The translations under genes and the position numbers were made by a program. DNA of 64,000 nucleotides from an uncultured Chloroflexia bacterium. Lineage in GTDB: Bacteria; Chloroflexota; Limnocylindria; Limnocylindrales; CSP1-4. This document shows positions 9,253-32,517 of this stretch, piece by piece; the stretch's first letter is position 1; each line of letters opens with the position of its first letter. The stretch lies in the NCBI GenBank assembly GCA_963749705.1, contig CAVVNQ010000007.1:32001-96000 (forward strand). The letters are read 5' to 3'. Under the pieces are notes generated by a model that had not been told where the DNA came from, ran no database searches, and worked only from the letters and a program-made list of their open reading frames with translations.

Positions 9253-10244
9253 GCGCCCGCTCCGTCGACCCGAACCGCGCCGGCCGCGGCGCCCGCACCG
9301 CCGCCGATGGCGTACAGCCGGGCCGGGTTGCGGACCAGGATCAGGTCCGCGGCGTCGTCGCCCAGCCGCCGCCGCAGTCGCGGCACGAAGGTGGCCATCA
9401 GGTACCGCAGCCCGGGCCCTCCCTCGTAGGCACGCAGGTAGCCGCGCTGGCCGAGGTCGAGGCCGAGCACGATCCGATCGAGATGCCCCGCCGCTGCCAC
9501 GGCCTCGATCAGGTCGAGCACCGTGCTGTCCGGGTGGTACTTGGTCCGCCCGATCGTGTCGTACTCGAGGGTCACGCCCCTGGCCGCGATCTCGGCGTGG
9601 AGCTCGGCGTCCGGGTTGCGATCGAGGTGCGCGAGCGCGACCCGCCCGGGGGCTGCCCCGGCCGCCACCAGCGCGTCGACGATCTCGTGACCGGCGGTCC
9701 CGATCTCGGTGTGGACGAGCACGGCGGCACCGGTCGCGGCGCTCGCGCCGCCGATGGCCTCGAGCCGTCGTCGCTCGCCACGCGTGATCCGGTGGTAGGA
9801 CGCCCCGCCCTTGATCGCGCCCGCACGGGCGGGGTCCGGCGGCAGCCCGGGGTCGAGCCAGTCGGCGGGGTGCATGCCCACCGTGAGGTCGGCGACGACC
9901 CGGTCCGCGAGCACCTCGACGGGGGCCGAGTGGACCCAGTGGTCCGCGGGGTAGTGCCAGTCACGGTGGTACCCGGTGGCGGCGACGATCGTGACCCCGG
10001 TCGCCCCGGCGATCGCCCGCAGCCGGTCCGGCCGGCGCCCCAGCCCGATCGGCGTCATCTCGACGATCGTGCCGATCCCGCTCGTCCGTGCGTCGCGCAC
10101 CTCCTCGATCGAGCGCTCGACGTCCGTGAACGCGCCGGCCGGGTCGGCGGGCGAGTCGAGGATCAGGTGGTCGTGGGCATCGACCACGCCCAGCGCCGCC
10201 GCGGGACGGGGACCGGTGACGGCGATGACGTGGGCCTCGGGCAC
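9249..10244 (-). CDS. Phosphotriesterase-family (PTE/PHP-like) amidohydrolase/lactonase
   Basis: DAHDH metal motif, EMTPIGLGR, ATGYH, IK, VHT, AHLD, GLDLG; GGAGGAG RBS before GTG. Confidence 0.85.
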   Translation of the reverse strand: MPEAHVIAVTGPRPAAALGVVDAHDHLILDSPADPAGAFTDVERSIEEVRDARTSGIGTIVEMTPIGLGRRPDRLRAIAGATGVTIVAATGYHRDWHYPADHWVHSAPVEVLADRVVADLTVGMHPADWLDPGLPPDPARAGAIKGGASYHRITRGERRRLEAIGGASAATGAAVLVHTEIGTAGHEIVDALVAAGAAPGRVALAHLDRNPDAELHAEIAARGVTLEYDTIGRTKYHPDSTVLDLIEAVAAAGHLDRIVLGLDLGQRGYLRAYEGGPGLRYLMATFVPRLRRRLGDDAADLILVRNPARLYAIGGGAGAAAGAVRVDGAGA

Positions 10245-10431: not shown

Positions 10432-12882
10432 ATGGCTGCGACCGTCCATCCGGACGTGCGCGTCCCGGCCGTCAGCGACCGGCGATGCGCTCGCGCTCTC
10501 GTCGTCGAGGGCGTGGTCCAGGGTGTCGGCTTCCGACCGTTCGTGTGGCGCCTGGCCACCGAGCTGGACCTGGCCGGGCGGGTCCGGAACGCCGCCGGCC
10601 GCGTCGAGATCGAGGCCGCCGGGGCACCGGCCGCCCTCGATGCGCTGGCTCGACGGCTGCGGTCCGATGCCCCGCCGCGCGCCCGCGTGGAACGCGTCAC
10701 GGTGCGCGACCTGGGCGCCGACGACGACACCCTGCCCCGGCCGTTCGAGATCGTCGAGAGCGTGGGCGCGGCCGGCACGGACCGGCTGTTCCCGCCCGAC
10801 ATCGCGACCTGCGACGCGTGCCTGGCCGAGCTGCGCGATCCGGCGGACCGGCGGTATCGCTATCCGTTCACGAACTGCACCGACTGCGGGCCACGGGCCA
10901 CGATCATCGACCAGCTCCCGTACGACCGATCGCAGACCACGATGCGGGCCTTCCCGCTGTGCCCGGCGTGCGACGCCGAGTACCGGGACCCCGCGGATCG
11001 CCGGTTCCACGCAGAGCCGGTCGCCTGCCCGGACTGCGGACCGAGGCTCGCCTGGCGGCCGACGGGCGCCGCCGCTCCGGTCGCGGCGGGCGACGCGGCC
11101 CTGGCCGCCGCCGTGCGCCTGCTGCTCGACGGCGGGATCGTCGCGGTCAAGGGCCTGGGTGGCTACCAGCTCGCCTGCGACGCGACGAGCGAGGAGGCCG
11201 TGATGCGGCTCCGGGATCGCAAGCGGCGCTGGGCGAAGCCGTTCGCGATCATGGTCCGGGACCTCGGCGCCGCGCGGGTCCTGTGCCGGATCGGGGCGGC
11301 CGAGCGCCGCCTGCTGACGGGACCGGCGCGACCGATCGTGCTCCTCGAGGCCCGGCGCGACGTCCGGCCCGGGCTCGCCCCGACTCTCGCCCCGGCCGTC
11401 GCGGCGGGAAATCGCCGGCTGGGCGTGTTCCTGCCCTGCACGCCGCTCCACCATCTCCTCATGGCCGACCTCGACCGGCCGATCGTGCTCACCTCCGGCA
11501 ACCTCACCGACGAGCCGCTGGCCACCGACGACGCCGACGCCCTGGCCCGCCTGTCGGGCCTCGCCGACGGCTTCCTGGTCCACGACCGCGAGATCCGGGC
11601 GCGGTACGACGACTCGGTCACGCGCGTCGTCGCGGGCCGCGAGTCGATCGTGCGCCGCGCCCGCGGCTACGCCCCGGACCCGGTCGACCTGCCCCTGCCC
11701 ACACCGACACCGCTGCTCGCGGTGGGCGCCGAGCTCAAGCACACGTTCACGCTGGCTCGCGGCGGGCGTGCCCACGTCGCGCCGCATAACGGCGACCTCG
11801 AGGATCTCGCGACCCACCGGGCGTTCACCGACGGGCTCGCCCACCTGTCGCGGCTGCTCTCGCTCGAGCCCGAGGTCGTCGTCCACGACCTCCACCCCGA
11901 GTACCTCTCGACCAAGTACGCGATCGAGCGGTTCCCGCCGTCCCGCCGGATCGCCGTCCAGCACCACCACGCGCACGTCGCCTCGTGCGCCGCCGAGCAC
12001 GGGATCACCGAGCCGGTCCTGGGCGTCGCCTACGACGGCCTGGGCATGGGCGACGACGGGACCCTGTGGGGCGGCGAGCTGCTGCTGGCCGACCTGCGCG
12101 GGTACCGGCGGCTGGCACGGTTCGGCCGGGCCCCGCTGCCCGGCGGCGCGCTCGCGGTCCGGCGGCCGTACCGGATGGCGCTCGGGTACCTGTTCGGCGC
12201 CGAGGCGCTCGACGGACGCGGGGACGTGCCCGGCATCCCGCTCGCCGACGACGCCATCGCCGGGTTCCTCGCCCGCCTCGAGGCCCGCGAGGTCGCGCTC
12301 GTTCGCACCCAGGTCGCGCGGCGGCTCAACGCGCCCGTCGCCTCGTCGGCCGGTCGCCTGTTCGATGCCGCCGCGGCGCTGCTCGGGATCCGCGACATCG
12401 CCGAGTTCGAGGCGCAGGCGGCCGTCGATCTCGAGCTCGCGGCCGGCGACCGGGCCGCCCGATCGCTCCCGTACGCCATCGGGCGGTCGGAGGGGCTGCT
12501 GGTCTACGACCCGCGCCCGACGCTGGCCGCGCTCGTGGTCGCCCGGGCGGGCGGTGCCGCCGTGGCGCCGCTGGCGGCCGCCTTCCAGGAGACGATCGCG
12601 GACGTCACCCGGACGCTCCTGTCCGAGGCACGGGCAGCAACCGGCGTGCGCACCGTGTGCCTGTCGGGCGGCGTGTTCCAGAACCGGCGGCTCGCGTCCA
12701 CGCTGCTCCGGCGGCTGGCGCGCGACGGGTTCGAGGTGTTCATCAATCGACGCGTTCCCGTCAACGACGGCGGGGTGAGCTACGGCCAGGCCGCGATCGG
12801 TGCCGCACGGCTCGGCTCGGCGTCCGGCGCCGCACGGCTCGGATCGGGCGCCGTCCCGACGACCCCGGCGACGGAGGGCTGA
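10432..12882 (+). CDS. hypF: [NiFe]-hydrogenase maturation carbamoyltransferase HypF
   Basis: Acylphosphatase VQGVGFRPFV, two CxxC zinc fingers, KGLGGY, HDLHPEY, QHHHAH, NDGGVSYGQA. Confidence 0.96.
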   Translation: MAATVHPDVRVPAVSDRRCARALVVEGVVQGVGFRPFVWRLATELDLAGRVRNAAGRVEIEAAGAPAALDALARRLRSDAPPRARVERVTVRDLGADDDTLPRPFEIVESVGAAGTDRLFPPDIATCDACLAELRDPADRRYRYPFTNCTDCGPRATIIDQLPYDRSQTTMRAFPLCPACDAEYRDPADRRFHAEPVACPDCGPRLAWRPTGAAAPVAAGDAALAAAVRLLLDGGIVAVKGLGGYQLACDATSEEAVMRLRDRKRRWAKPFAIMVRDLGAARVLCRIGAAERRLLTGPARPIVLLEARRDVRPGLAPTLAPAVAAGNRRLGVFLPCTPLHHLLMADLDRPIVLTSGNLTDEPLATDDADALARLSGLADGFLVHDREIRARYDDSVTRVVAGRESIVRRARGYAPDPVDLPLPTPTPLLAVGAELKHTFTLARGGRAHVAPHNGDLEDLATHRAFTDGLAHLSRLLSLEPEVVVHDLHPEYLSTKYAIERFPPSRRIAVQHHHAHVASCAAEHGITEPVLGVAYDGLGMGDDGTLWGGELLLADLRGYRRLARFGRAPLPGGALAVRRPYRMALGYLFGAEALDGRGDVPGIPLADDAIAGFLARLEAREVALVRTQVARRLNAPVASSAGRLFDAAAALLGIRDIAEFEAQAAVDLELAAGDRAARSLPYAIGRSEGLLVYDPRPTLAALVVARAGGAAVAPLAAAFQETIADVTRTLLSEARAATGVRTVCLSGGVFQNRRLASTLLRRLARDGFEVFINRRVPVNDGGVSYGQAAIGAARLGSASGAARLGSGAVPTTPATEG

Positions 12883-13233: not shown

Positions 13234-13237
<4 letters not shown>
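12887..13237 (+). CDS. hypC: Hydrogenase assembly chaperone HypC/HupF
   Basis: MCLGIPG start, [26 protein letters not shown]; has a C-terminal extension. Confidence 0.95.
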
Positions 13238-14405
<1,168 letters not shown>

Positions 14406-14409
<4 letters not shown>

Positions 14410-19151: not shown

Positions 19152-20534
19152 ATGCGTACGCTCATCAAGGGAGGCACCATCGTCAACGCCGACGCCACCG
19201 GCGCCGGCGACGTGCTCGTCGATGGCGAGCGGATCGCGCTGATCGGCGAGCGCCTAGATGTCGAGGCCGACCAGACGATCGATGCCAGCGGCAAGTGGGT
19301 GATCCCGGGCGGGATCGACCCCCACACGCACATGGAGCTGCCGTTCGGCGGCACCTTCGCCAAGGACACGTTCGAGACCGGCAGCCGCGCGGCGGCGTTC
19401 GGTGGCACGACCACGATCATCGACTTCGCCGTCCAGCCGCGGGGCGGGTCGTTCCGCGACGGCCTCGCCACGTGGCACGAGAAGGCCGACGGCAAGACCT
19501 GCATCGACTACGCGTTCCACGTGATCGTGTCCGACATGCGCGACGAGCTGCTGCCCGAGATGGACGAGCTGGTCGACGAGGGCGTCACCACGTTCAAGCT
19601 GTTCACCGCCTACCCGGGCGTGTTCCTCAGCGGCGACGACGCGATCTTCAAGGCGATGAAGCAGACCGCCAAGAACGGCGGCATGATCCTGATGCATGCC
19701 GAGAACGGCCCCGTCATCGACGTGGTCGCGGCCGAGCTGGTGGCGCAGGGCGTCACCGACCCGATCGGGCATGGGCTCGCCCGCTACTCGATCTTCGAGG
19801 CCGAGGCGACCCACCGGCTGATCCGGCTGGCCCAGGCCGCAAAGGCGCCCGTGTACTTCGTCCACATGTCCGCAAGGGAGGCGCTCGACGCGCTCCGCCA
19901 GGCGCAGAACGAGGGCCTGCCGGCGTTTGCCGAGACGTGCCCGCAGTACCTGTACCTGTCGCTCGCGGACATCGACCAGGGCTTCGAGGGCTCCAAGTTC
20001 GTCTGCTCGCCCCCGCTCCGCGACCGGGCCGCCGGCCACCAGGAGGAGCTCTGGAAGGGGCTGATCAAGGGCAACCTGTCAGCCGTCGGCACGGACCACT
20101 GCCCGTTCGACTTCCACGGCCAGAAGGAGCTCGGCCGGGGCGACTTCCGCAAGATCCCCAACGGCCTGCCCGGCGTCGAGGAGCGGGTCGACCTCATCCA
20201 CCAGGGTGTCGTCGACGGCCGGATCACGCCCAACCGCTTCGTGGAGATCACCTCCACGGGCGCCGCGCGGCTGTTCGGCCTGACCAGGAAGGGCGCGATC
20301 GCCGCCGGCTACGACGCCGACATCGTGGTCTACGACCCCGACCGGAAGCACACCCTCAGCGCGAGCACGCACCACATGGACGTGGACTACTCGTGCTACG
20401 AGGGCCTCGAGGTCCAGGGTGGCTCCGACGTGGTCATGAGCCGCGGCAAGGTCATCGTCGATCACGGCCAGTGGCTGGGCAAGGCCGGGGACGGCAAGTT
20501 CGTCAAGCGGGAGCGCAGCATCTTCGTGCGCTGA
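19152..20534 (+). CDS. hydA: Dihydropyrimidinase (D-hydantoinase)
   Basis: PGGIDPHTH, GGTTTIIDF, FKLF, HAENG, ETCPQYL, SPPLR, TDHCPF, IPNGLPGVEER. Confidence 0.95.
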   Translation: MRTLIKGGTIVNADATGAGDVLVDGERIALIGERLDVEADQTIDASGKWVIPGGIDPHTHMELPFGGTFAKDTFETGSRAAAFGGTTTIIDFAVQPRGGSFRDGLATWHEKADGKTCIDYAFHVIVSDMRDELLPEMDELVDEGVTTFKLFTAYPGVFLSGDDAIFKAMKQTAKNGGMILMHAENGPVIDVVAAELVAQGVTDPIGHGLARYSIFEAEATHRLIRLAQAAKAPVYFVHMSAREALDALRQAQNEGLPAFAETCPQYLYLSLADIDQGFEGSKFVCSPPLRDRAAGHQEELWKGLIKGNLSAVGTDHCPFDFHGQKELGRGDFRKIPNGLPGVEERVDLIHQGVVDGRITPNRFVEITSTGAARLFGLTRKGAIAAGYDADIVVYDPDRKHTLSASTHHMDVDYSCYEGLEVQGGSDVVMSRGKVIVDHGQWLGKAGDGKFVKRERSIFVR

Positions 20535-20600
20535 CCGCCCGTCCCCGACACGCACGGCGGCCCGGGAGCGAACGCTCCCGGGCCGCCTGATTCGCGGGGG
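20526..20600 (+). repeat. Left direct repeat, including the hydA 3' end and a terminator-like hairpin
   Basis: GTGCGCTGACCGCCCGTCCCCGACACGCACG (20526-20556) and GCCTGATTCGCGGGGG (20585-20600) both recur at 22268-22313. Confidence 0.85.
20556..20587 (+). terminator. Hairpin after hydA
   Basis: Perfect inverted repeat GGCGGCCCGGGAGCG-AA-CGCTCCCGGGCCGCC. Confidence 0.65.
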
Positions 20601-20665
20601 ACGGGGTCAACGCCGAACAACGCGCGGGACGTCGCCCGAACGCGTATCGTCATGGGCGTGGCCTG

Positions 20666-21562
20666 TTGCCGCAGCGCCCGGCGATCCGCGCCGGCACCAT
20701 CGCGAGGCTCCCCTTGCCCCGGTTCGTCCGCCCGCTGCTCCTCCTGTCCGCTGCCCTGGTCCTGACGGCCGTGTTCGGGTTGGTTGTGTGGAGCCGCGCC
20801 CAGGCCGGTCCTGACGATGCGCCGCCGCTGCCCGCCATGGTCGATCCGCTGCTCCCCGACCTGGTCATGGCGCCGATCGAGGACATCGGCATCACGGTCA
20901 CCGGCGTTGGTGCCCGCAGGCTCCGGTTCTCCGCGATGTTCGTCAACATCGGCGAGGGCGACTTCCTGATCCGCGCCGACCGGACGTTTCCGTTGCTCGA
21001 CGACTGGAAGGCCGTGCAGCTGATCGATGAACGAGGAGGCGGGCACACCGAGCACGACACCGGTGCAAGCCTCGTCTACGGTGGTGATGGGCACTTCCAT
21101 TTCCACGTCCGAGAGTCGGAGCGCCATGTCCTGGAGACCCTCGACGGTGCGCCGATCGCCACGGTCGTGAAGCAGGGCTTCTGCTTCTTCGATACCGACC
21201 TCATCGACCCGGATCTGCCAGGCGCACCGGCCGCACCCGCGTATGACTCCAAGGCGTGTGGATCGCGCCTCGCCGTCCGATCGCGAATGGGCCTGTCCGT
21301 CGGCTGGGGCGACAAGTACCCCTGGAACATGCTCCAGCAGAACATCGACGTCACGGACCTGCCGGACGGAACGTATCGGATCCGGGAGACGGCGGACCCG
21401 TTCAACGACTTCATCGAGGCGGACGAGTCGAACAACGACGTGTGGGCCGAGATCCGGATCACGACGGTTGACAGGTTTCCGCAGCTCGAGGTCGTGGCCC
21501 GCAGCCCGAGCGTGCTGACGTTGCGGGAGTCGCCGAGCCCGGGGATCACCCCGACGCCTTGA
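20666..21562 (+). CDS. Lysyl oxidase (LOX) family protein, exported or membrane-anchored
   Basis: LLPDL, LRFS, Cu-binding HFHFH, KQGFC (LTQ Lys position), GLSVGWGDKY (LTQ Tyr position), QNIDVTDLPDGTY, ESNN; N-terminal signal/TM ending AQA. The start may be TTG 20714. Confidence 0.82.
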   Translation: MPQRPAIRAGTIARLPLPRFVRPLLLLSAALVLTAVFGLVVWSRAQAGPDDAPPLPAMVDPLLPDLVMAPIEDIGITVTGVGARRLRFSAMFVNIGEGDFLIRADRTFPLLDDWKAVQLIDERGGGHTEHDTGASLVYGGDGHFHFHVRESERHVLETLDGAPIATVVKQGFCFFDTDLIDPDLPGAPAAPAYDSKACGSRLAVRSRMGLSVGWGDKYPWNMLQQNIDVTDLPDGTYRIRETADPFNDFIEADESNNDVWAEIRITTVDRFPQLEVVARSPSVLTLRESPSPGITPTP

Positions 21563-21773
21563 GGGGGATCAGCCCGACCCCGTCGGGCGGACTTTCGCCG
21601 CCTGCGAGTGGTTCCCGTTCGCCGGCAACAATCCGGTGCGCCCTGGCAACACCTCGCCCGGCGCCCCGCACGCGAGGGCCGGAAGTCCTGAGAATCGGAG
21701 TACCAATGGCTGTCGCTTTCGGTTAAGGTCCGTGGACGGGGAGTCCATCTAATGTCGTGGAGGGAAGGGCCGA

Positions 21774-22181
21774 ATGAAGAAGCGCCTGCTGCTGTTGCCT
21801 GTCGCGCTGATGCTGTTGGCGCTGGTTGGCGTCCCGTCGGCGTCAGCGAGCCTGACGAGCGTCGAGTCCGGTGTCGGCAACCCGTCCTGTACCGGGTTCA
21901 AGATCGACCCCGTTGCCGACGGCACCTACTACTTTGACGGCGCATGGTTCACCATTGACGTCTACCAGACCGCCAACGGGCCGGAATTCGACTGGTCGTC
22001 CAACTACGTCGTCACCAGCGTCACGGTCAAGGGTGGTCCCGAGTACAACCTGTACATCTACTCCGGCGATGAGTCTGGCACGGGGCTGCACTCACCGATC
22101 AACTACAAGAACCCGCACCACTTCTGGTACGGCCTCAGTCACCTGTGCTTCGAGGCATCGAAGAAGGAGCCCGCCAAGTAG
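21774..22181 (+). CDS. Small secreted protein (signal peptide, two Cys)
   Basis: MKKRLLLLPVALMLLALVGVPSASA signal peptide; VTVKGG...NLYIY...GLHSPIN...LSHLCF; GAGG RBS. Confidence 0.8.
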   Translation: MKKRLLLLPVALMLLALVGVPSASASLTSVESGVGNPSCTGFKIDPVADGTYYFDGAWFTIDVYQTANGPEFDWSSNYVVTSVTVKGGPEYNLYIYSGDESGTGLHSPINYKNPHHFWYGLSHLCFEASKKEPAK

Positions 22182-22207
22182 GGAGCGGCCCACCAACGCT
22201 GCGCAGC

Positions 22208-22237
22208 ACGACGCCGCGGCCACCGCCGCGGCGTCGT
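22208..22237 (+). terminator. Hairpin after the secreted-protein gene
   Basis: Perfect 13-bp stem ACGACGCCGCGGC/GCCGCGGCGTCGT with loop CACC. Confidence 0.6.
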
Positions 22238-22267
22238 CATGTCTCGGGTGCGGTCTTGCAATTCAGG

Positions 22268-22313
22268 GTGCGCTGACCGCCCGTCCCCGACACGCACGCC
22301 TGATTCGCGGGGG
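22268..22313 (+). repeat. Right direct repeat (hairpin segment absent)
   Basis: Exact 31-nt copy of 20526-20556 joined directly to a copy of 20586-20600. Confidence 0.85.
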
Positions 22314-22321
22314 TTCGAGCC

Positions 22322-23455
22322 TCAGGCCGGGGTCAGCGGCGGGGCGTAGCCCTCGGCCTCATCCTGGTCCTCGTAGCCGCCGTGATAGTCCTTCGCCTCC
22401 GGGCGCCGGATCGCGGACTGGGCGACCACCCGGCCGCGGCGGATCCCGCGGAAGTCGTCGAGCGACGTCCAGCCGCGCTCCGCGTTTCGGTCGAGGAACT
22501 CGGCCATTCCGGTCGTCAGGTTGCGGATGACGTTGGGCCCGATCGCATGGTCGAGCATCGCCGCGGTCGCCACCTGGGCCGTCCCGCAGCCGAGCAGGAA
22601 GTAGCTCAGCGCGTGGTCGAACGTGGAGATCCCGCCGATCGCAGAGAACTCGTGATCGGGGAACGCCTGCGTCATCTCGGCCATCTTGGCCAGCGACTGC
22701 ATCAGGATCCCGGGCCCGCCCTGCCCGCCCGGCGACACCAGGCCGTCGACGTTGACCTCGGGCTCAAGCGTCAACGGATCGAACAGCGGCAGCGACGGGA
22801 ACGTGTTGGACGAGGAGATCGCGTCGGCGCCCCCGCGGAACGTGGCCTCGGCCTCTTCCACGATGTTGGCCGTTGCCGGGGTGAGCTTGACCCACACCGG
22901 GACCCGGGCGACGGCCTTGACGGCCTGGGTGGACACGGAGCACAGGACCGGGTCCTTGCCGACGTTCGAGCCCATGTCGACGCGATCCATGTGCGGGCAT
23001 GAGAAGTTGAGCTCGAGCGCGTCGGCGCCGGCGTCCTGGACGCCCTCGACCAGGGTCTGCCAGTTGCCGAGCTCCTTGTCGGTGCCCGAGCCTGCCATGA
23101 TCGAGGCGACCAGGACCCGGTCCGGCCACGCGGCCTTGATCGAGCGGATCCTGGGCAGCCACCAGTCCATCGGCTTGTCCGAGATCAGCTCCCAGTTCCA
23201 GGACGCCATCAGCGCCGTGTCGGGGCGCTTCGCCATCGACAGTCGCGAGCCACCGATGTCTGCGCGCAGGAACTTGGTCTTGGGCCCGGCGACGTTCACC
23301 ACCGGGTGCAGCCCGATCGTCTTGGTGACCACGCCACCCCAGCCGGCTTCGAACGCCCGCATGATGTTGCTCTCGGACTCGGTCGGGGGCGCCGACGCGA
23401 GCAGGAACGGGTTCTCGAAGCGAATGCCCGTGAACACCGTGGACAGATCGGCCAC
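22322..23455 (-). CDS. preA: Dihydropyrimidine dehydrogenase PreA-like FMN subunit lacking the C-terminal ferredoxin domain
   Basis: NPFLLASAPPT, AFEAGWGGVVTKT, NWELISD, LELNFSCPH, VKLTP, GGIS; no C-terminal CxxCxxC clusters; AAGGAGGA RBS before GTG. Confidence 0.85.
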   Translation of the reverse strand: MADLSTVFTGIRFENPFLLASAPPTESESNIMRAFEAGWGGVVTKTIGLHPVVNVAGPKTKFLRADIGGSRLSMAKRPDTALMASWNWELISDKPMDWWLPRIRSIKAAWPDRVLVASIMAGSGTDKELGNWQTLVEGVQDAGADALELNFSCPHMDRVDMGSNVGKDPVLCSVSTQAVKAVARVPVWVKLTPATANIVEEAEATFRGGADAISSSNTFPSLPLFDPLTLEPEVNVDGLVSPGGQGGPGILMQSLAKMAEMTQAFPDHEFSAIGGISTFDHALSYFLLGCGTAQVATAAMLDHAIGPNVIRNLTTGMAEFLDRNAERGWTSLDDFRGIRRGRVVAQSAIRRPEAKDYHGGYEDQDEAEGYAPPLTPA

Positions 23456-27651: not shown

Positions 27652-28905
27652 GTGGACGGTCCCGCGGCAGGCGGCCGCGGAACGGGCGCCGATGTCGCGC
27701 TGCTGTTCCTGACCCGCGCCCTGCGGATGTTCGGGTACGGGTTCCTCGCCGTCGTCCTGGTCCTGTACCTGTCCTCGATCGGGCTGTCGGGCGGCGAGAT
27801 CGGGCTGCTGCTCGGCCTGACCCTGCTTGGCGATGCGGCGGTCTCGCTGTGGCTGACCACCCACGCGGACCGGATCGGCCGGCGGCGGGTGCTCATGGTC
27901 GGCGCGATCCTGATGCTGGTCGCGGGGCTGGTGTTCGTGGCCACGCCCGTGTTCGCGGTGCTGCTGGTCGCCGCGACGATCGGCGTGCTCAGCCCGAGCG
28001 GCAACGAGGTGGGCCCGTTCCTCGCCGTCGAGCAGGCGGCGCTCGCGCAGCTGATCCCCGGCCGGCGCCGGACCGGCGTGTTCGCCTGGTACCAGCTGAC
28101 CGGGTCGTTCGCGACCGCTGCGGGCACGCTCGCGGGCGGTCTCGTGTCCCAGCTCGCGCTCGACCGTGGCGCCGACGCGCCCGATGCGTACCGCCTGGTG
28201 ATCGTGGGCTACGCGCTGGTCGGCGCCGCCCTCGCGCTGCTGTTCACGCGCGTGTCGGCGCGCGTCGAGGTGCCGGCGCAGGCGGTCGCCGACGGCACGA
28301 TCCGCGACCGGCTCGGCCTCCACCGCTCGCGCTCGGTCGTGCTCCGCCTGTCGGCGCTGTTCGCGCTCGACGCGTTCGCCGGCGGGTTCGCGATCCAGAG
28401 CTTCATCGCGTTCTGGTTCCACGATCGATACGGCGTCGACCCGGCCGCGCTCGGCCTCGTCCTCGCGGCGGCCAACCTGCTGGCCGGGTTCTCGGCGCTC
28501 GCGGCGGGCCGGCTCGCCGCCCGGTTCGGGCTGGTGCGCACGATGGTGTTCACGCACCTGCCGTCGAACGTGCTGCTGATGCTCGTCCCGCTGATGCCGA
28601 CGCTGCCCCTGGCCGTCGCGACGCTGCTCGCCCGCTTCGCGATCAGCCAGATGGACGTCCCGACCCGGCAGTCATACACGATGGCGATCGTCGCGCCCGA
28701 CGAGCGCTCGGCTGCGGCCGGGGTGACCGGGATCGCGCGCAGTCTGGGGGTCGCGGCGGCGCCGCTGATCGCGGGTCCGCTGTTCGCGACCGCCTCGCTG
28801 GCCAGCCTGCCGTTCCTCATCGCCGGTGGACTCAAGGTCGGCTACGACCTGCTCCTCTACCGCGCCTTCAGCCGTCTCCGCCCGCCGGAGGAGCTGGAGG
28901 GCTGA
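27652..28905 (+). CDS. MFS transporter
   Basis: About 12 TM segments, ADRIGRRR motif A, MDVPTRQSY. Confidence 0.88.
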   Translation: MDGPAAGGRGTGADVALLFLTRALRMFGYGFLAVVLVLYLSSIGLSGGEIGLLLGLTLLGDAAVSLWLTTHADRIGRRRVLMVGAILMLVAGLVFVATPVFAVLLVAATIGVLSPSGNEVGPFLAVEQAALAQLIPGRRRTGVFAWYQLTGSFATAAGTLAGGLVSQLALDRGADAPDAYRLVIVGYALVGAALALLFTRVSARVEVPAQAVADGTIRDRLGLHRSRSVVLRLSALFALDAFAGGFAIQSFIAFWFHDRYGVDPAALGLVLAAANLLAGFSALAAGRLAARFGLVRTMVFTHLPSNVLLMLVPLMPTLPLAVATLLARFAISQMDVPTRQSYTMAIVAPDERSAAAGVTGIARSLGVAAAPLIAGPLFATASLASLPFLIAGGLKVGYDLLLYRAFSRLRPPEELEG

Positions 28906-29054
28906 ACCGCTCGCCCGCGGCACGGACACCCCCTCCGGCACGGTCAGAGCGGGTGATCTGGCCGTCGGCGGAAGGTGGCCGGCCGTCGACAATGTCGACC
29001 TTGCGTCCACACCGTCGTCGTTGCCCAGACGACCGACCGAGGTCCAGACCGACC

Positions 29055-31652
29055 ATGACCGTCGACGCGTTGACCCAGCACCAGCCAGACCCGTTCCTGC
29101 CGCTGCCGGCGATGACCGCGGACGCGGCCCGGACCGAGGCCGAGCGCTGCCTGTACTGCTACGACGCGCCGTGCACGCGCGCCTGCCCCACGGGCATCGA
29201 CGTGCCCTCGTTCATCCGCAAGATCGCCACCGGCAACATCGAGGGCAGCGCCCGGACCATCCTCGCGGCGAACCCGCTGGGCGCAACGTGCGGCGCGGCG
29301 TGTCCCGTGGAGCGGCTGTGCGAGGGCGCCTGCGTGCGCAACGCCGTCGATCAGCCGATCGCCATCGGGCGGCTCCAGCGCCACGCCGTCGAGGCGTACG
29401 CGGCGTCCGGTGGTGCGTTCATCACGCCCGGCGAGGAGACGGGCCTGCGGGTGGCCATCGTGGGCGCCGGCCCGGCCGGCTTGGCCTGCGCGGCGGAGCT
29501 CCGGCGGGCGGGGATCAGCGTCACCCTGTACGAGGCCGACGAGCGGGCCGGCGGCCTTGGCGACCACGGCATCGTGCCCTGGCGCCTGCCGCGCGAGACC
29601 GTCGCCCTCGACGTGGCCGAGGTGGAGCGCGCCGGTGCCCGGTTCGAGCTGGGCGCGCGGATCGGCCGCGATGTCGATCCCGCCGACCTGCTGGCCACCC
29701 ATGACGCGGTCGTGGTGGCCATCGGGCTGGGGCACGGCATGGAGCTCGGACTGCCCGGCGAGGACAAGGCCGGCGTGATCGACGCGCTGACCCTGATCCG
29801 GCATGCGATCGACGGCGGACCGGGCGAGGCGCCGATCGGCCGCCGGGTGGGCGTGATCGGTGGTGGCAGCACCGCGTTCGACGCCGCCGCCGCTGCGGTC
29901 CGCCTCGGGGCCGAGGAGGTCACCCTGTTCTACCGGCGGAGCATCGCGGAATGCCCCGCGTATCCGCATGCGATCGAGCTCGCCCGACGTCTGGGCGTCA
30001 CGATCCGCTGGCTGACCGCGCCGATCGAGATCCTGGGCGACCAACGGGTGACCGGGGTCGCGTTCGAGTCGATGCGCCTGGGCGCGCTGGACGCCAGCGG
30101 GCGCCCGCGCCCGACGCCGGTGCACGGCTCGTGGTTCGAGGTTCCCCTCGACACGGTGGTGCGCGCCGTCGGCCAGGACGAGCCCGAGGGCGCCGCGAGC
30201 CTCCGGGCCGGCCTTGGACTGCCCGTGCGCCAGGACGGCGTCGTCGCCGACCCGGCGACCGGACGGACCAGCAGCCCCAGGGTCTGGGCCATCGGCGACA
30301 TCACGAGCGGCGGGGCCGAGGTCGTCAATGCCGTCCAGGCCGGCAAGCTCGCGGCGAGGTCGATCGTCGAGGCCCTCGGTGCGGGCGGGCCGCGGATCGT
30401 CCCGGTCAGGCCGACCGACGCGACCGTGCCCGGCGTGGACCTGTTCACGGACATGGCCGGGATCCGGTCGCCCAACCCGTTCTGGCTGGCCAGCTGCCCG
30501 ATCACCAACAACGGCGACATGGTCGCCAGGGCATTCGACGCGGGCTGGGGCGGGGTCGTCTGGAAGACGATCGGCGCCCAGGTCCGCAACGTCACGTCGC
30601 GCCTGGGCTCGCTCGACGTCGACGGCCGGCGCCTGGTCGGGCTGTCGAACATCGAGCTCATCAGCGACCGCCCGACCGAGGACAACCTGACCGAGATCGC
30701 CGACATCAAGCGGCGCTACCCGAACCAGGCGGTGGTCGTGTCGCTGATGGTCGAGTCCAACCGCGAGGCGTGGCACGAGATCGTGCGCAAGGTGAACGAC
30801 ACCGGCGCGGACGGCTTCGAGCTCAACTTCGGCTGCCCGCACGGGATGAGCGAGCGGGGCATGGGCGCGGCCGTGGGGCAGGTCCCCGAGTACGTCCGGA
30901 TGATCACGGAATGGGTGATGGAGACCGCCGAGCTGCCGGTGCTCGTCAAGCTCACGCCCAACGTGACCGACATCCGACCGCCCGCCAGGGCCGCCCGCGC
31001 CGGCGGCGCCGACGGGATCGCGCTGATCAACACCGTCAGCTCGCTGATCGGCGTCAACCTCGATACCTGGGCGCCGGTTCCGGACGTTCGCGGACGCGGC
31101 AGCCACGGCGGGTTCTCGGGGCCGGCCGTCAAGCCGATCGCCCTGCACATGGTGTCTGCCGTGTCGTCCGACCCGGACGTGCGCATCCCGGTCTCCGGCA
31201 TCGGCGGCATCGCCGATTGGCGGGACGCGGTCGAGTTCCTGCTCGTCGGCGCGACCACGGTCCAGGTGGGCACGACGGTCATGCACCTGGGCTACCGGAT
31301 CATCGACGACCTCGTCGACGGCCTGTCGACCTACCTCCGCGCGAAGGGCCTGCACAGCCCGTCCGAGCTCGTCGGGCGCGCGCTGCCCACGCTCGGTGAC
31401 TGGGGTGAGCTCGACCAGACGTTCCGGCTGCTTGCCCACATCGACGAGTCGCGCTGCATCCACTGCAACGCGTGCTACGCCGCGTGCAACGACGGCGCCC
31501 ACCAGGCGATCCGCCTCGACGGGCACAACGGCACGTCGCGGCTGTCCGTGGACGGTGACTACTGCGTCGGCTGCCGGCTGTGCCAGTACGTGTGCCCGGT
31601 CGACGGGTGCATCACGTTCGAGGAGCTCGAGGGGGCGGCCGCACCGCACTGA
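29055..31652 (+). CDS. preA: Fused dihydropyrimidine dehydrogenase PreT-PreA (single polypeptide)
   Basis: N-half is GltD/PreT-like (EAERCLYCYDAPCTRACP, GAGPAG, GGGSTAFD, GDI). C-half is PreA (NPFWLAS, NIELISD, ELNFGCPHGMSERGMG) ending in a ferredoxin domain (CIHCNACYAAC, CVGCRLCQYVCP). No stop between the halves. Confidence 0.92.
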   Translation: MTVDALTQHQPDPFLPLPAMTADAARTEAERCLYCYDAPCTRACPTGIDVPSFIRKIATGNIEGSARTILAANPLGATCGAACPVERLCEGACVRNAVDQPIAIGRLQRHAVEAYAASGGAFITPGEETGLRVAIVGAGPAGLACAAELRRAGISVTLYEADERAGGLGDHGIVPWRLPRETVALDVAEVERAGARFELGARIGRDVDPADLLATHDAVVVAIGLGHGMELGLPGEDKAGVIDALTLIRHAIDGGPGEAPIGRRVGVIGGGSTAFDAAAAAVRLGAEEVTLFYRRSIAECPAYPHAIELARRLGVTIRWLTAPIEILGDQRVTGVAFESMRLGALDASGRPRPTPVHGSWFEVPLDTVVRAVGQDEPEGAASLRAGLGLPVRQDGVVADPATGRTSSPRVWAIGDITSGGAEVVNAVQAGKLAARSIVEALGAGGPRIVPVRPTDATVPGVDLFTDMAGIRSPNPFWLASCPITNNGDMVARAFDAGWGGVVWKTIGAQVRNVTSRLGSLDVDGRRLVGLSNIELISDRPTEDNLTEIADIKRRYPNQAVVVSLMVESNREAWHEIVRKVNDTGADGFELNFGCPHGMSERGMGAAVGQVPEYVRMITEWVMETAELPVLVKLTPNVTDIRPPARAARAGGADGIALINTVSSLIGVNLDTWAPVPDVRGRGSHGGFSGPAVKPIALHMVSAVSSDPDVRIPVSGIGGIADWRDAVEFLLVGATTVQVGTTVMHLGYRIIDDLVDGLSTYLRAKGLHSPSELVGRALPTLGDWGELDQTFRLLAHIDESRCIHCNACYAACNDGAHQAIRLDGHNGTSRLSVDGDYCVGCRLCQYVCPVDGCITFEELEGAAAPH

Positions 31653-32450: not shown

Positions 32451-32507
32451 CGAGTCGGCTACGCCGCGAGTCGGCTACGCCGCGAGTCGGCTACGCCGCG
32501 AGTCGGC
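32451..32507. repeat. 16-bp tandem repeat (~3.5 copies)
   Basis: CGAGTCGGCTACGCCG three times plus CGAGTCGGC, between convergent genes. Confidence 0.9.
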
Positions 32508-32517
32508 CGCGCGAACG

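Follow-up and report, generated by a model that had tools for sequence, protein, structure and literature searches.

A bacterial lysyl oxidase gene and a conserved small partner gene between direct repeats of a dihydropyrimidinase gene end

The window analysed here, i.e. the whole 64-kb stretch of DNA from an uncultured Chloroflexota bacterium, contains a pyrimidine-breakdown cluster, recognized from profile matches to an NCS1 permease, a nitrilase-family amidase, dihydropyrimidinase (HydA), a PreA-like protein and MMSDH. This cluster is split by a two-gene cassette that is functionally unrelated to it and that lies between the convergent hydA and preA-like genes. The features of the locus are as follows.

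19152..20534, + strand: hydA, dihydropyrimidinase (TIGR02033, 549.1 bits for a cut-off of 393.25; ORF listing)
20526..20556, no strand: left repeat, part 1, 31 nt (100% identity with 22268-22298)
20556..20587, no strand: perfect hairpin with 15-nt arms and a 2-nt loop, in the left copy only
20584..20600, no strand: left repeat, part 2, 17 nt (100% identity with 22297-22313)
20601..22267, + strand: cassette of 1.67 kb with two genes and its own hairpin, as bounded by the repeats
20714..21562, + strand: lysyl oxidase (LOX) gene, 282 aa, starting at TTG 20714 (PF01186, alignment with LOXL2, fold match)
21774..22181, + strand: gene for a 135-aa secreted beta-sandwich partner with the C-terminal Lys tail SKKEPAK (K130, K131 and K135); GGAGGGAAGG upstream of the ATG
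22208..22237, no strand: the cassette's own hairpin, with 13-nt arms and a 4-nt loop, 3' of the partner gene
22268..22313, no strand: right repeat, contiguous 46 nt lacking the hairpin; the end of hydA with its stop codon is repeated here as non-coding sequence
22322..23455, - strand: preA-like gene of the DHO_dh family (NF006183, 291.8 bits, below the cut-off of 335; PF01180)

The left repeat spans positions 20526-20600, its two parts being split by the hairpin, while in the right copy the 31-nt and 17-nt parts have 2 nt in common and make up a single 46-nt stretch. The repeat starts with GTGCGCTGA, which corresponds to the last 9 bases of hydA (its final two codons and the stop codon), and continues into the downstream spacer. 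With up to 3 mismatches allowed, the 31-mer has 2 copies in the 64-kb window as against 0 in 100 shuffles, and a 15-mer of the repeat with up to 2 mismatches also has 2 copies. The hairpin at 20556-20587 is present once, and a window-wide search revealed no further repeat pair of this kind. Local alignment of the two cassette flanks gave z = 14.1 relative to shuffles. The initial annotation of this DNA had described a 31-nt sequence and a downstream segment duplicated on both sides of an insert, a hairpin confined to the left copy and the separation of hydA (+) from a convergent preA-like gene (-), and our analysis agrees with it on all three points, with a downstream segment of 17 nt. The REP-like element that it had considered as another explanation of the repeat is at odds with the copy numbers of the 31-mer (exactly 2) and of the hairpin (1) within the 64 kb. 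A match that seemed to prolong the repeat into 'CGGGGTCA' (20602-20609 and 22328-22335) was put down to chance because it is out of register and mismatched, whereas the repeat itself is exact.

The stop codon of the preA-like gene (22322-22324) is found 8 nt beyond the right repeat copy, and the GTG at 23455, preceded by AGGAGG, is its probable start. The 91 nt around the left-copy hairpin have a predicted fold of -62 kcal/mol (z = -5.69), and this hairpin is probably the shared terminator of hydA and the preA-like gene; the hairpin at 22208-22237 is probably a terminator as well. Both are devoid of a T-run, and a terminator scan found no site at either of them. An Rfam scan of positions 20300-22500 at E up to 1 yielded sub-threshold matches only, mostly on the hairpins, and a sigma-70 promoter scan returned 0 sites.

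The first ORF of the cassette is a member of the LOX family. It matches PF01186 with 31.6 bits, above the cut-off of 20.4, over positions 84-194 of the 204 of the profile, and the NCBIfam models gave no match to it. Its HFHFH motif aligns with HRHYH, the copper His triad of human LOXL2, and the Lys of VKQGFC and the Tyr of GDKY align with a Lys and a Tyr of LOXL2 that we take to be the residues forming the lysyl-tyrosyl quinone cofactor. HxHxH, K153 and Y202 are invariant in 40/40 aligned LOX homologues. An alternative TTG start at 20666 would yield a 298-aa protein; the database form has 282 aa, and GAGG is found upstream of 20714. The predicted structure (pLDDT 91.4) has an N-terminal helix at residues 5-29, and a Foldseek search of the PDB with this model gave 5ze3 as the best match (E = 1.2e-8, TM 0.48-0.50, 248 columns), followed by a match at E = 0.015. 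The protein is predicted to be a secreted or membrane-anchored, putative copper-dependent lysyl oxidase. The identification of a LOX from the HFHFH, KQGFC and GDKY motifs in the initial annotation is borne out by the alignment with LOXL2 and by the PF01186 profile search that it had proposed. Its view that both cassette products are exported is supported as far as both ORFs have hydrophobic N-termini, which for the LOX is compatible with secretion or membrane anchoring.

Animal LOX/LOXL enzymes (human LOXL2, 5ze3) share with the cassette LOX the fold of the catalytic domain, the HxHxH triad, the presumed quinone Lys and Tyr residues and the PF01186 signature. In contrast with them, the cassette LOX consists of 282 residues, with a hydrophobic helix at the N-terminus followed by a single domain, has no SRCR domains or propeptide, shows about 20% sequence identity with 5ze3 and is encoded together with a dedicated small partner. 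Bacterial and archaeal LOX homologues have been known since 2015 (PMC4448552), and in the available sections of two publications they are described as single-domain proteins with a signal peptide or a transmembrane region and a patchy distribution for which horizontal transfer has been proposed (PMC4448552, PMC6452851). The cassette LOX is similar to these proteins in its single domain and its N-terminal hydrophobic region (Grau-Bove et al. 2015; Pestov et al. 2019). It differs in that a partner gene adjoins it, whereas none is reported in the available text of PMC4448552 or PMC6452851; in that of the latter, the strings 'operon' and 'neighbo' do not occur. The five bacterial LOX clades listed in the accessible part of PMC4448552 exclude Chloroflexota.

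The small protein encoded downstream of the LOX gene matches no Pfam family at E up to 0.1. No solved fold relative was found by a fold search, whose best match had E = 0.35 and a TM of at most 0.35, and ESM Atlas returned only unnamed hypothetical clusters. A PDB sequence match to the 'cell surface protein' 2l0d (E = 0.012) was discarded as too weak, the fold search giving no support for it. The domain that makes up the partner is also found at the head of many large surface proteins without LOX nearby. As its conserved Cys and His residues are common to this entire wider domain family, they are irrelevant to the link with LOX.

A scan with the family of the small protein as the query yielded 60 loci, of which 23 encode it as a stand-alone protein. 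A LOX gene is the immediate same-strand neighbour in 18 loci (18/60, or 18/23 stand-alone ones), with both gene orders represented. The five other stand-alone loci comprise one at a contig edge and four Streptomyces copies that have Lys-less tails and no LOX nearby, and thus LOX adjoins the small protein in 18/18 informative loci where the latter is Lys-tailed, across two phyla. Cultured carriers of the pair include Actinokineospora xionganensis (L007) and Actinophytocola sp. (L009). All LOX-linked partners (19 including that of the window) harbour at least one Lys residue in the tail, and 15/19 harbour KK. The His triad, Lys and Tyr are kept in 19/19 intact LOX ORFs of the loci, with K-x-G-Y-C in place of the KQGFC motif in clade B. 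LOX and partner genes are the only ones common to all 19 loci, the window counted; no third conserved gene was found among them, and a GSDH-family neighbour (PF07995) is present in only four. Each of the five clades seen in the LOX tree appears again in the partner tree, a congruence that may partly reflect shared organismal descent. The closest of the scanned loci are 45-52% identical to the LOX and partner of the window; the best relatives, at 51-52% identity, come from Chloroflexota for LOX and from Actinomycetota for the partner. Partner and LOX proteins of 70-84% identity are encoded on further contigs. Word-based searches gave 531 LOX matches and 10 partner matches, and one LOX gene of a related locus (L006) has no partner; the partner is probably missing beside most LOX homologues. 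The suggestion that the 135-aa protein is a partner of the LOX, for which a co-occurrence analysis had been proposed, is thus supported by adjacency, by the congruent trees and by the complex prediction described below. Bacterial LOX enzymes were already known, whereas this conserved partner appears to be undescribed so far.

The loci also inform on how the pair came to split the pyrimidine-breakdown cluster. Homologues of the hydA, preA, amidase, permease and aldehyde dehydrogenase genes were found near none of the 60 loci. The right repeat consists in part of hydA coding bases and a stop codon that lie outside any gene, as expected after an insertion. In another locus (L001), the same gene pair is flanked by two copies, matching at 33/36 nt, of the 3' end of a PNPOx-family gene with its stop codon; the repeat and target gene of L001 are unrelated to those of the hydA case, and its gene order is opposite. 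Such flanking repeats are present only in the window and L001, and absent in 16 of the 18 testable loci, a count that includes the window. The GC content of the cassette (0.62-0.675) dips slightly relative to that of the flanks (0.68-0.72), and the GC3 of both cassette genes (0.87) is inside the range of the window and no outlier, so that composition gives no foreign mark.

We consider it highly probable that the cassette represents an insertion and that its two genes form a conserved unit. This self-contained unit would have been inserted into the short spacer between hydA and the preA-like gene, duplicating a target of 75 nt (46 nt if the hairpin is left out) that comprises the spacer and the region around the hydA stop codon. 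The initial annotation had spoken of a mobile two-gene module with no recombinase inside. The latter point holds, as the 1.67 kb are filled by two genes, neither of which matches a recombinase family, and no recombinase was found among 20 further ORFs of the window examined. The conserved unit and the insertion signature, also seen in L001, are in line with the proposed module; no recombinase or transposase, terminal inverted repeats at the cassette ends or conserved ends were found that would mark it as a defined mobile element. A search for shared upstream 8-mers across the loci found none, and upstream motifs revealed nothing beyond coding sequence. To our knowledge, target duplications of 36-75 nt far exceed those made by known transposases. 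The likeliest route would be a non-site-specific duplicative event (a staggered break that was filled in, or template switching) during which the copying polymerase may have skipped the folded hairpin and thereby generated a right copy without it.

The repeats might instead be att-like sites. A circular element with a hairpin-less copy of the spacer would have recombined with the chromosome, either through a trans-acting recombinase or by homologous (Campbell-type) recombination, and the cassette would be its integrase-less remnant. Integrated elements typically lie between direct repeats of 30-60 nt by which the 3' end of their target gene is restored, and those that are bounded by att repeats but lack an integrase belong to the cis-mobilisable elements. 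The cassette is similar to them in that the hydA 3' end is regenerated by its repeats and that it contains no recombinase. The repeat copies are 100% identical, and if the crossover fell inside the 17-nt part, only the left copy would retain the hairpin, as observed. However, the cassette is just 1.67 kb long, has no conserved ends or inverted repeats and is bounded by one repeat copy without the internal hairpin; a recombinase is lacking in the 20 other ORFs as well, and a tRNA search found none. L001 also argues against this scenario. Its repeat and target are unrelated to those of the window and its genes stand in the opposite order, so that every cassette would have to carry a separate imitation of the site it entered. 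We therefore regard att-like recombination as somewhat unlikely, and the duplicative event as the preferred explanation.

What the two proteins do together was approached by structure prediction. The LOX-partner complex reached ipSAE values of 0.72, 0.72 and 0.74 in three runs, compared with 0.00 for the best control. The mark used for this score is reached by 116/157 solved complexes and 2/215 mismatched pairs, counts that are only a rough guide here as our own alignments were used. At least 94% of contacts are common to the three runs, and the partner pLDDT is at least 89. On the LOX side, the predicted interface comprises residues 125-126, 201 and 203-207, beside H127/H129/H131 and Y202, and on the partner side it comprises residues 125-129, immediately before the tail. 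From these models, the partner probably binds LOX near its active site. The confident contacts come from the globular body of the partner and not from its Lys tail, and they would fit a stable subunit or a lid equally well as a substrate.

The small protein might accordingly be a helper or lid rather than the polymerised product, similar to the caddie MelC1 of Streptomyces tyrosinase. It would cover the LOX active site and aid copper loading, cofactor formation or export, or keep the LOX latent. According to the available part of PMC11608171, the tyrosinase MelC2 is co-transcribed with the secreted MelC1 of ~13 kDa (caddie family PF06236), which covers the active site and inserts a substrate-like side chain into it. 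The size of the partner, its secretion signal and its tight adjacency to the gene of a secreted copper oxidase are reminiscent of that pair, and the model similarly sets its globular face on LOX residues near the His triad and the quinone Tyr. In contrast, the families and the copper chemistry of the two systems are unrelated, and the caddie family is among those that the partner does not match at E up to 0.1. It would be unusual for the domain of a dedicated chaperone to stand at the head of many LOX-less surface proteins. LOX linkage is tracked by the Lys tail, and Lys is the substrate group of LOX, which also counts against a caddie. A helper or lid function is in our opinion rather unlikely, and we favour the tail as the target of the enzyme.

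It is improbable that the LOX serves nitrogen scavenging or detoxification by acting on small amines in solution, with the small protein a merely co-inherited neighbour. The one characterised prokaryotic LOX, HTU-LOX of Haloterrigena turkmenica, has a relaxed specificity and oxidises many amines, aminoglycosides and polymyxin (PMC6452851, in the sections available), and the native role of prokaryotic LOX is called enigmatic or cryptic in the accessible text of PMC4448552 and PMC6452851. The probable lack of a partner beside most LOX homologues, including the one in L006, also fits such a function. However, adjacency in all 18 informative Lys-tailed loci, in both gene orders and two phyla, argues against it, as do the congruent trees and a complex prediction above its mark. 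Most improbable of all is that both genes are ancestral at the site and that the repeat arose later, when the spacer was duplicated locally or underwent gene conversion, a scenario with which the non-foreign composition would agree, but not the hydA codons and stop codon in the right copy, nor the splitting of a coherent pathway cluster whose genes are found near none of the related loci.

Our preferred reading is that the inserted unit encodes a secreted or membrane-anchored copper LOX and a small secreted beta-sandwich protein ending in a flexible, Lys-bearing tail, and that the two genes are inherited and transferred jointly in Chloroflexota and Actinomycetota. The partner would dock on LOX beside the site formed by the His triad and the Lys-Tyr quinone, and LOX would oxidise the Lys residues of its C-terminal tail to aldehydes, which might then form cross-links of the partner with itself or with other cell-envelope amines. 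We give even chances to this entire chain, from insertion and two-gene unit to docking, tail oxidation and cross-linking, and slightly less than even ones to the Lys tail being the LOX substrate. More tentatively, the pair could represent an unrecognized system of extracellular covalent cross-linking or anchoring in single-membrane bacteria (Chloroflexota and Actinomycetota), with the partner as the first native substrate of a prokaryotic LOX. The tail, 'C-x4-6-KK...PK(K)', would then be a tag that LOX turns into aldehydes, so as to build a cross-linked surface layer or to fix the partner to the envelope without sortase, and the pair would move between phyla as a minimal unit, through insertions that duplicate tens of target bases.

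Of lesser weight, but curious with regard to the movement of minimal gene units, is the insertion signature, a long target duplication that was seen at two different targets. Lysyl oxidases build the extracellular matrix of animals, and the recurring pair of a LOX and a Lys-tailed protein points to a possible natural target of the bacterial enzymes. Adjacency, the LOX-linked Lys tail and the predicted docking near the active site offer a concrete and cheap way to find the target of prokaryotic LOX. If the partner is indeed cross-linked, this would be a new way in which bacteria form covalent surface polymers and would provide a compact two-part tool for protein cross-linking.

The cassette lies between two convergent genes, and the features of this region are as follows.

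Features of the cassette and its flanks
19152-20534 (+), dihydropyrimidinase gene (hydA)
20526-20556, left repeat, part 1 (31 nt), recurring exactly at 22268-22298
20556-20587, perfect hairpin (15-nt arms, 2-nt loop)
20584-20600, left repeat, part 2 (17 nt), recurring exactly at 22297-22313
20714-21562 (+), lysyl oxidase (LOX) gene
21774-22181 (+), gene for the 135-residue partner protein
22322-23455 (-), preA-like gene
27849-31652, fused full-length dihydropyrimidine dehydrogenase ORF

The initial annotation read the first cassette gene as that of a bacterial LOX, with HFHFH, KQGFC and GDKY at LOX-equivalent positions, and both claims hold. The ORF scores 31.6 bits against Pfam Lysyl_oxidase (cut-off 20.4), with no matching NCBIfam model. 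A PDB sequence search gave human LOXL2 as its significant match (5ze3, E = 2.7e-4), with HFHFH opposite HRHYH, the Lys of VKQGFC opposite that of HKASFC and the Tyr of GDKY opposite that of WDMY. The database form has 282 residues, corresponding to a TTG start at 20714. We retrieved 531 homologues, and three His, the Lys, the Tyr and two Cys residues are invariant in the 40 that were aligned. The AlphaFold model (pLDDT 91.4) predicts a beta-rich domain behind an N-terminal helix (residues 5-29), and LOXL2 is the sole strong match of this model in a PDB fold search (E = 1.2e-8, TM 0.48-0.50). Given the Pfam score, the LOXL2 alignment, the invariant residues and the fold match, the ORF is a member of the LOX family on every in silico feature, with putative activity and cofactor.

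This assignment is correct, but bacterial LOXs were already known. In PMC4448552, LOXs are reported from five clades of bacteria and two groups of archaea, and most of these are single-domain proteins of unknown function with a signal peptide or a transmembrane region. PMC6452851 presents a haloarchaeal LOX as an active, 3-aminopropionitrile-sensitive amine oxidase whose specificity is relaxed and whose native role is cryptic; neither 'operon' nor 'neighbo' occurs in that paper. No description of a LOX partner gene was found in titles and abstract beginnings, most subscription journals being outside the scope of the search.

The partner starts with a typical signal sequence (MKKRLLLLPVALMLLALVGVPSASA), judged by eye to be a probable signal peptide. 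It is confidently modelled as a beta-sandwich (pLDDT 85.6), with no fold relative in the PDB (best E = 0.35) and no match in Pfam or NCBIfam. The closest relatives of the partner, like those of LOX, come from metagenome collections and have 70-84% identity. A word-based search returned only 10 relatives, and searching 1.84 billion representative proteins with a profile yielded 1,992 family matches at E <= 0.001. In many of the latter, the domain sits at the N terminus of a long protein or recurs within one, sometimes in three to five copies, and 7 of 20 long matches scanned against Pfam harbour surface-protein domains, including DUF7507, DUF11, SpaA, SdrD_B and DUF5979. These contexts and companion domains identify it as a predicted surface-protein domain, undescribed and widespread, of which the window carries a stand-alone form. 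Among the best 150 of the 1,992 representative matches, 32 are of the SH-x-C type; 39 have at most 35 residues after the Cys, with a Lys in that tail in 33 of these.

Co-occurrence of the 135-residue family with LOX genes, a question raised in the initial annotation, was addressed by scanning species-representative genomes with the partner alignment. This yielded 60 loci, in which LOX genes were detected with a profile built from alignment A2. In 18 of them a LOX gene lies directly beside that of the partner, on the same strand; these are all 18 informative loci with a stand-alone, Lys-tailed partner, one more (L034) being at a contig edge, where LOX presence cannot be judged. Four stand-alone Streptomyces proteins with tails devoid of Lys have no LOX within 10 kb, and none was found near the 37 domains heading long ORFs (>30 residues after the domain). 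All LOX-linked partners end, a few residues past a conserved ...YGLSHLC motif, in a Lys-containing tail; KK is present in 15 of 19 tails, and many terminate in DPK(K). In family members without LOX, the Cys is shifted (SH-x-x-FC) and followed by linkers and more domains.

The 18 carriers belong to Chloroflexota (10), Pseudonocardiaceae (6), another Actinomycetes genome and a Thermoleophilia genome. The gene order is LOX-partner in the window and six loci and partner-LOX in 12, and these two genes are the only ones common to all 19 loci, window included. Each of the five LOX-tree clades was recovered in the partner tree, with four changes, the minimum possible, a value as low as which was obtained in 0 of 200 shuffles; shared host descent contributes to this congruence. 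Modules L036, L058 and L060, one from Thermoleophilia (Actinomycetota) and two from Limnocylindria (Chloroflexota), cluster together in both trees, which suggests inter-phylum transfer of the pair as a unit. They also have variant motifs in common: K-x-G-Y-C in LOX, and SH-x-x-FCFDPK where the partner ends.

Some loci harbour further features. In 4 of 19 loci, the module has a gene for a glucose/sorbosone dehydrogenase-type beta-propeller protein (PF07995) next to it or close by (L012, 10569-13091; L020, 6547-9720 (-); L032, 12214-13629; L036, 7395-8675), and in two of them this protein contains PKD domains as well. One Chloroflexia genome has a second LOX gene without adjoining partner (L006, 390-1271 (-)), 7.5 kb from its LOX-partner pair. 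GGCAACAATC precedes the partner gene both in the window (21620-21640) and in L001 (9905-9925). As its first 8 bases, GGCAACAA, occupy such a position in just 3 of 18 loci, we claim no conserved regulatory motif.

The duplication of the hydA end around the insert, and the lack of the hairpin in the right copy, were both correctly seen in the initial annotation. The repeat opens with the final two hydA codons and the stop codon. In the left copy the hairpin parts the two segments; in the right copy they overlap by 2 nt to form a contiguous 46-nt stretch, which ends 8 nt ahead of the preA-like stop codon. An outer stem around the hairpin (20535-20606) is formed by CCGCCCGTCCCC, part of the 31-nt repeat, and GGGGACGGGG(T), the latter stretching 6 nt beyond the repeat end into the cassette. 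CGGGGTCA is present at the left end of the cassette (20602-20609) and within the preA-like 3' end (22328-22335).

A right copy missing exactly the hairpin would be expected if a polymerase had copied a folded single strand. Att-like or Campbell-type integration accounts for this asymmetry equally well, and we retain it as a rival origin of the window repeats. Within the 64 kb covered, the repeat does not behave as a REP-like element, although it may have dispersed copies elsewhere in the genome: two copies of the 31-mer were found when up to 3 mismatches were tolerated (0 in 100 shuffles), the hairpin occurs once, and a repeat search across the window found no further pair of this type.

Two methods of searching for flanking direct repeats identified them in 2 of 18 testable loci, the window (z = 14.1) and L001 (z = 18.1). 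In the latter, from a Chloroflexia genome, the pair lies in the opposite order, partner then LOX, between two copies (9785-9813 and 11358-11386; 33/36 nt in the extended alignment) of the end of the upstream gene, stop codon included, this gene being a PNPOx-family ORF (9482-9811). The L001 LOX is split over three frames, either by decay or by long-read sequencing error. The L003 module, sister to that of L001, has another genomic context and no flanking repeat. Since the window and L001 differ in target, repeat sequence and gene order, the insertion signature has at least two origins. No flanking gene family of the window, or of 7 of the 18 loci, recurs at any other locus, and four pairs of loci are syntenic.

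Of the mobile module initially proposed, the insertion itself is thus well supported and has a repeat-flanked counterpart in L001, but no terminal inverted repeats were found at the window cassette and no shared end sequences across loci. As already noted in the initial annotation, the cassette holds no recombinase, only LOX and partner; no integrase or transposase is encoded by the 20 other window ORFs examined, and the 64 kb contain no tRNA gene. GC3 is 0.87 for both genes (crude window mean 0.90, sd 0.07), so composition does not help on origin. We propose that a minimal two-gene unit would have been acquired repeatedly through non-site-specific, target-duplicating insertion.

The cassette is functionally unrelated to its neighbours, a reductive pyrimidine-breakdown set without homologues in the 60 loci. 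This set comprises an NCS1 permease (TIGR00800, above cut-off), a nitrilase-family carbamoyl-amidase (best model match below its cut-off), the dihydropyrimidinase (TIGR02033, 549 bits, cut-off 393), the PreA-like protein (NF006183, 292 bits, below the cut-off of 335) and a methylmalonate-semialdehyde dehydrogenase (TIGR01722, above cut-off). The fused ORF (Fer4_20, Pyr_redox_2, DHO_dh and Fer4_21) provides the cluster with dihydropyrimidine dehydrogenase, in addition to the separate PreA-like paralogue; about 420 residues without Pfam match precede its dehydrogenase domains, and its start was probably called too early. Hydrogenase maturation genes lie upstream of the cluster (HypF, 10432-12882; HypD, 13234-14409), and about four tandem copies of a 16-nt unit (CGAGTCGGCTACGCCG; 32451-32512) directly follow a methyltransferase-like ORF.

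Complex prediction, run on residues 36-282 of LOX (its domain) and 26-135 of the partner (its mature form), supports a putative binding between the two. The ipSAE values were 0.72, 0.72 and 0.74 (best control 0.00), with at least 94% of contacts in common between runs and partner pLDDT of at least 89. Of the solved complexes, 116 of 157 reach the ipSAE mark, as do 2 of 215 mismatched pairs; with our own alignments as input, these counts apply only approximately. As there is no similar solved complex and no PDB relative of the partner, the score is unlikely to stem from memorised structures. In the model, the first partner strand pairs with LOX strand 56-64, and the partner sheet lies on LOX residues 125-126, 201 and 203-207, beside H127/H129/H131 and Y202. 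The interface includes partner residues 125-129, immediately before the Lys tail, which is itself not among the confident contacts. The partner may be likened to a caddie, an analogy based on PMC11608171. The conserved pair of LOX and Lys-tailed partner, at which the initial annotation had only guessed, is the most valuable result of this analysis, and it makes the function of prokaryotic LOXs testable.
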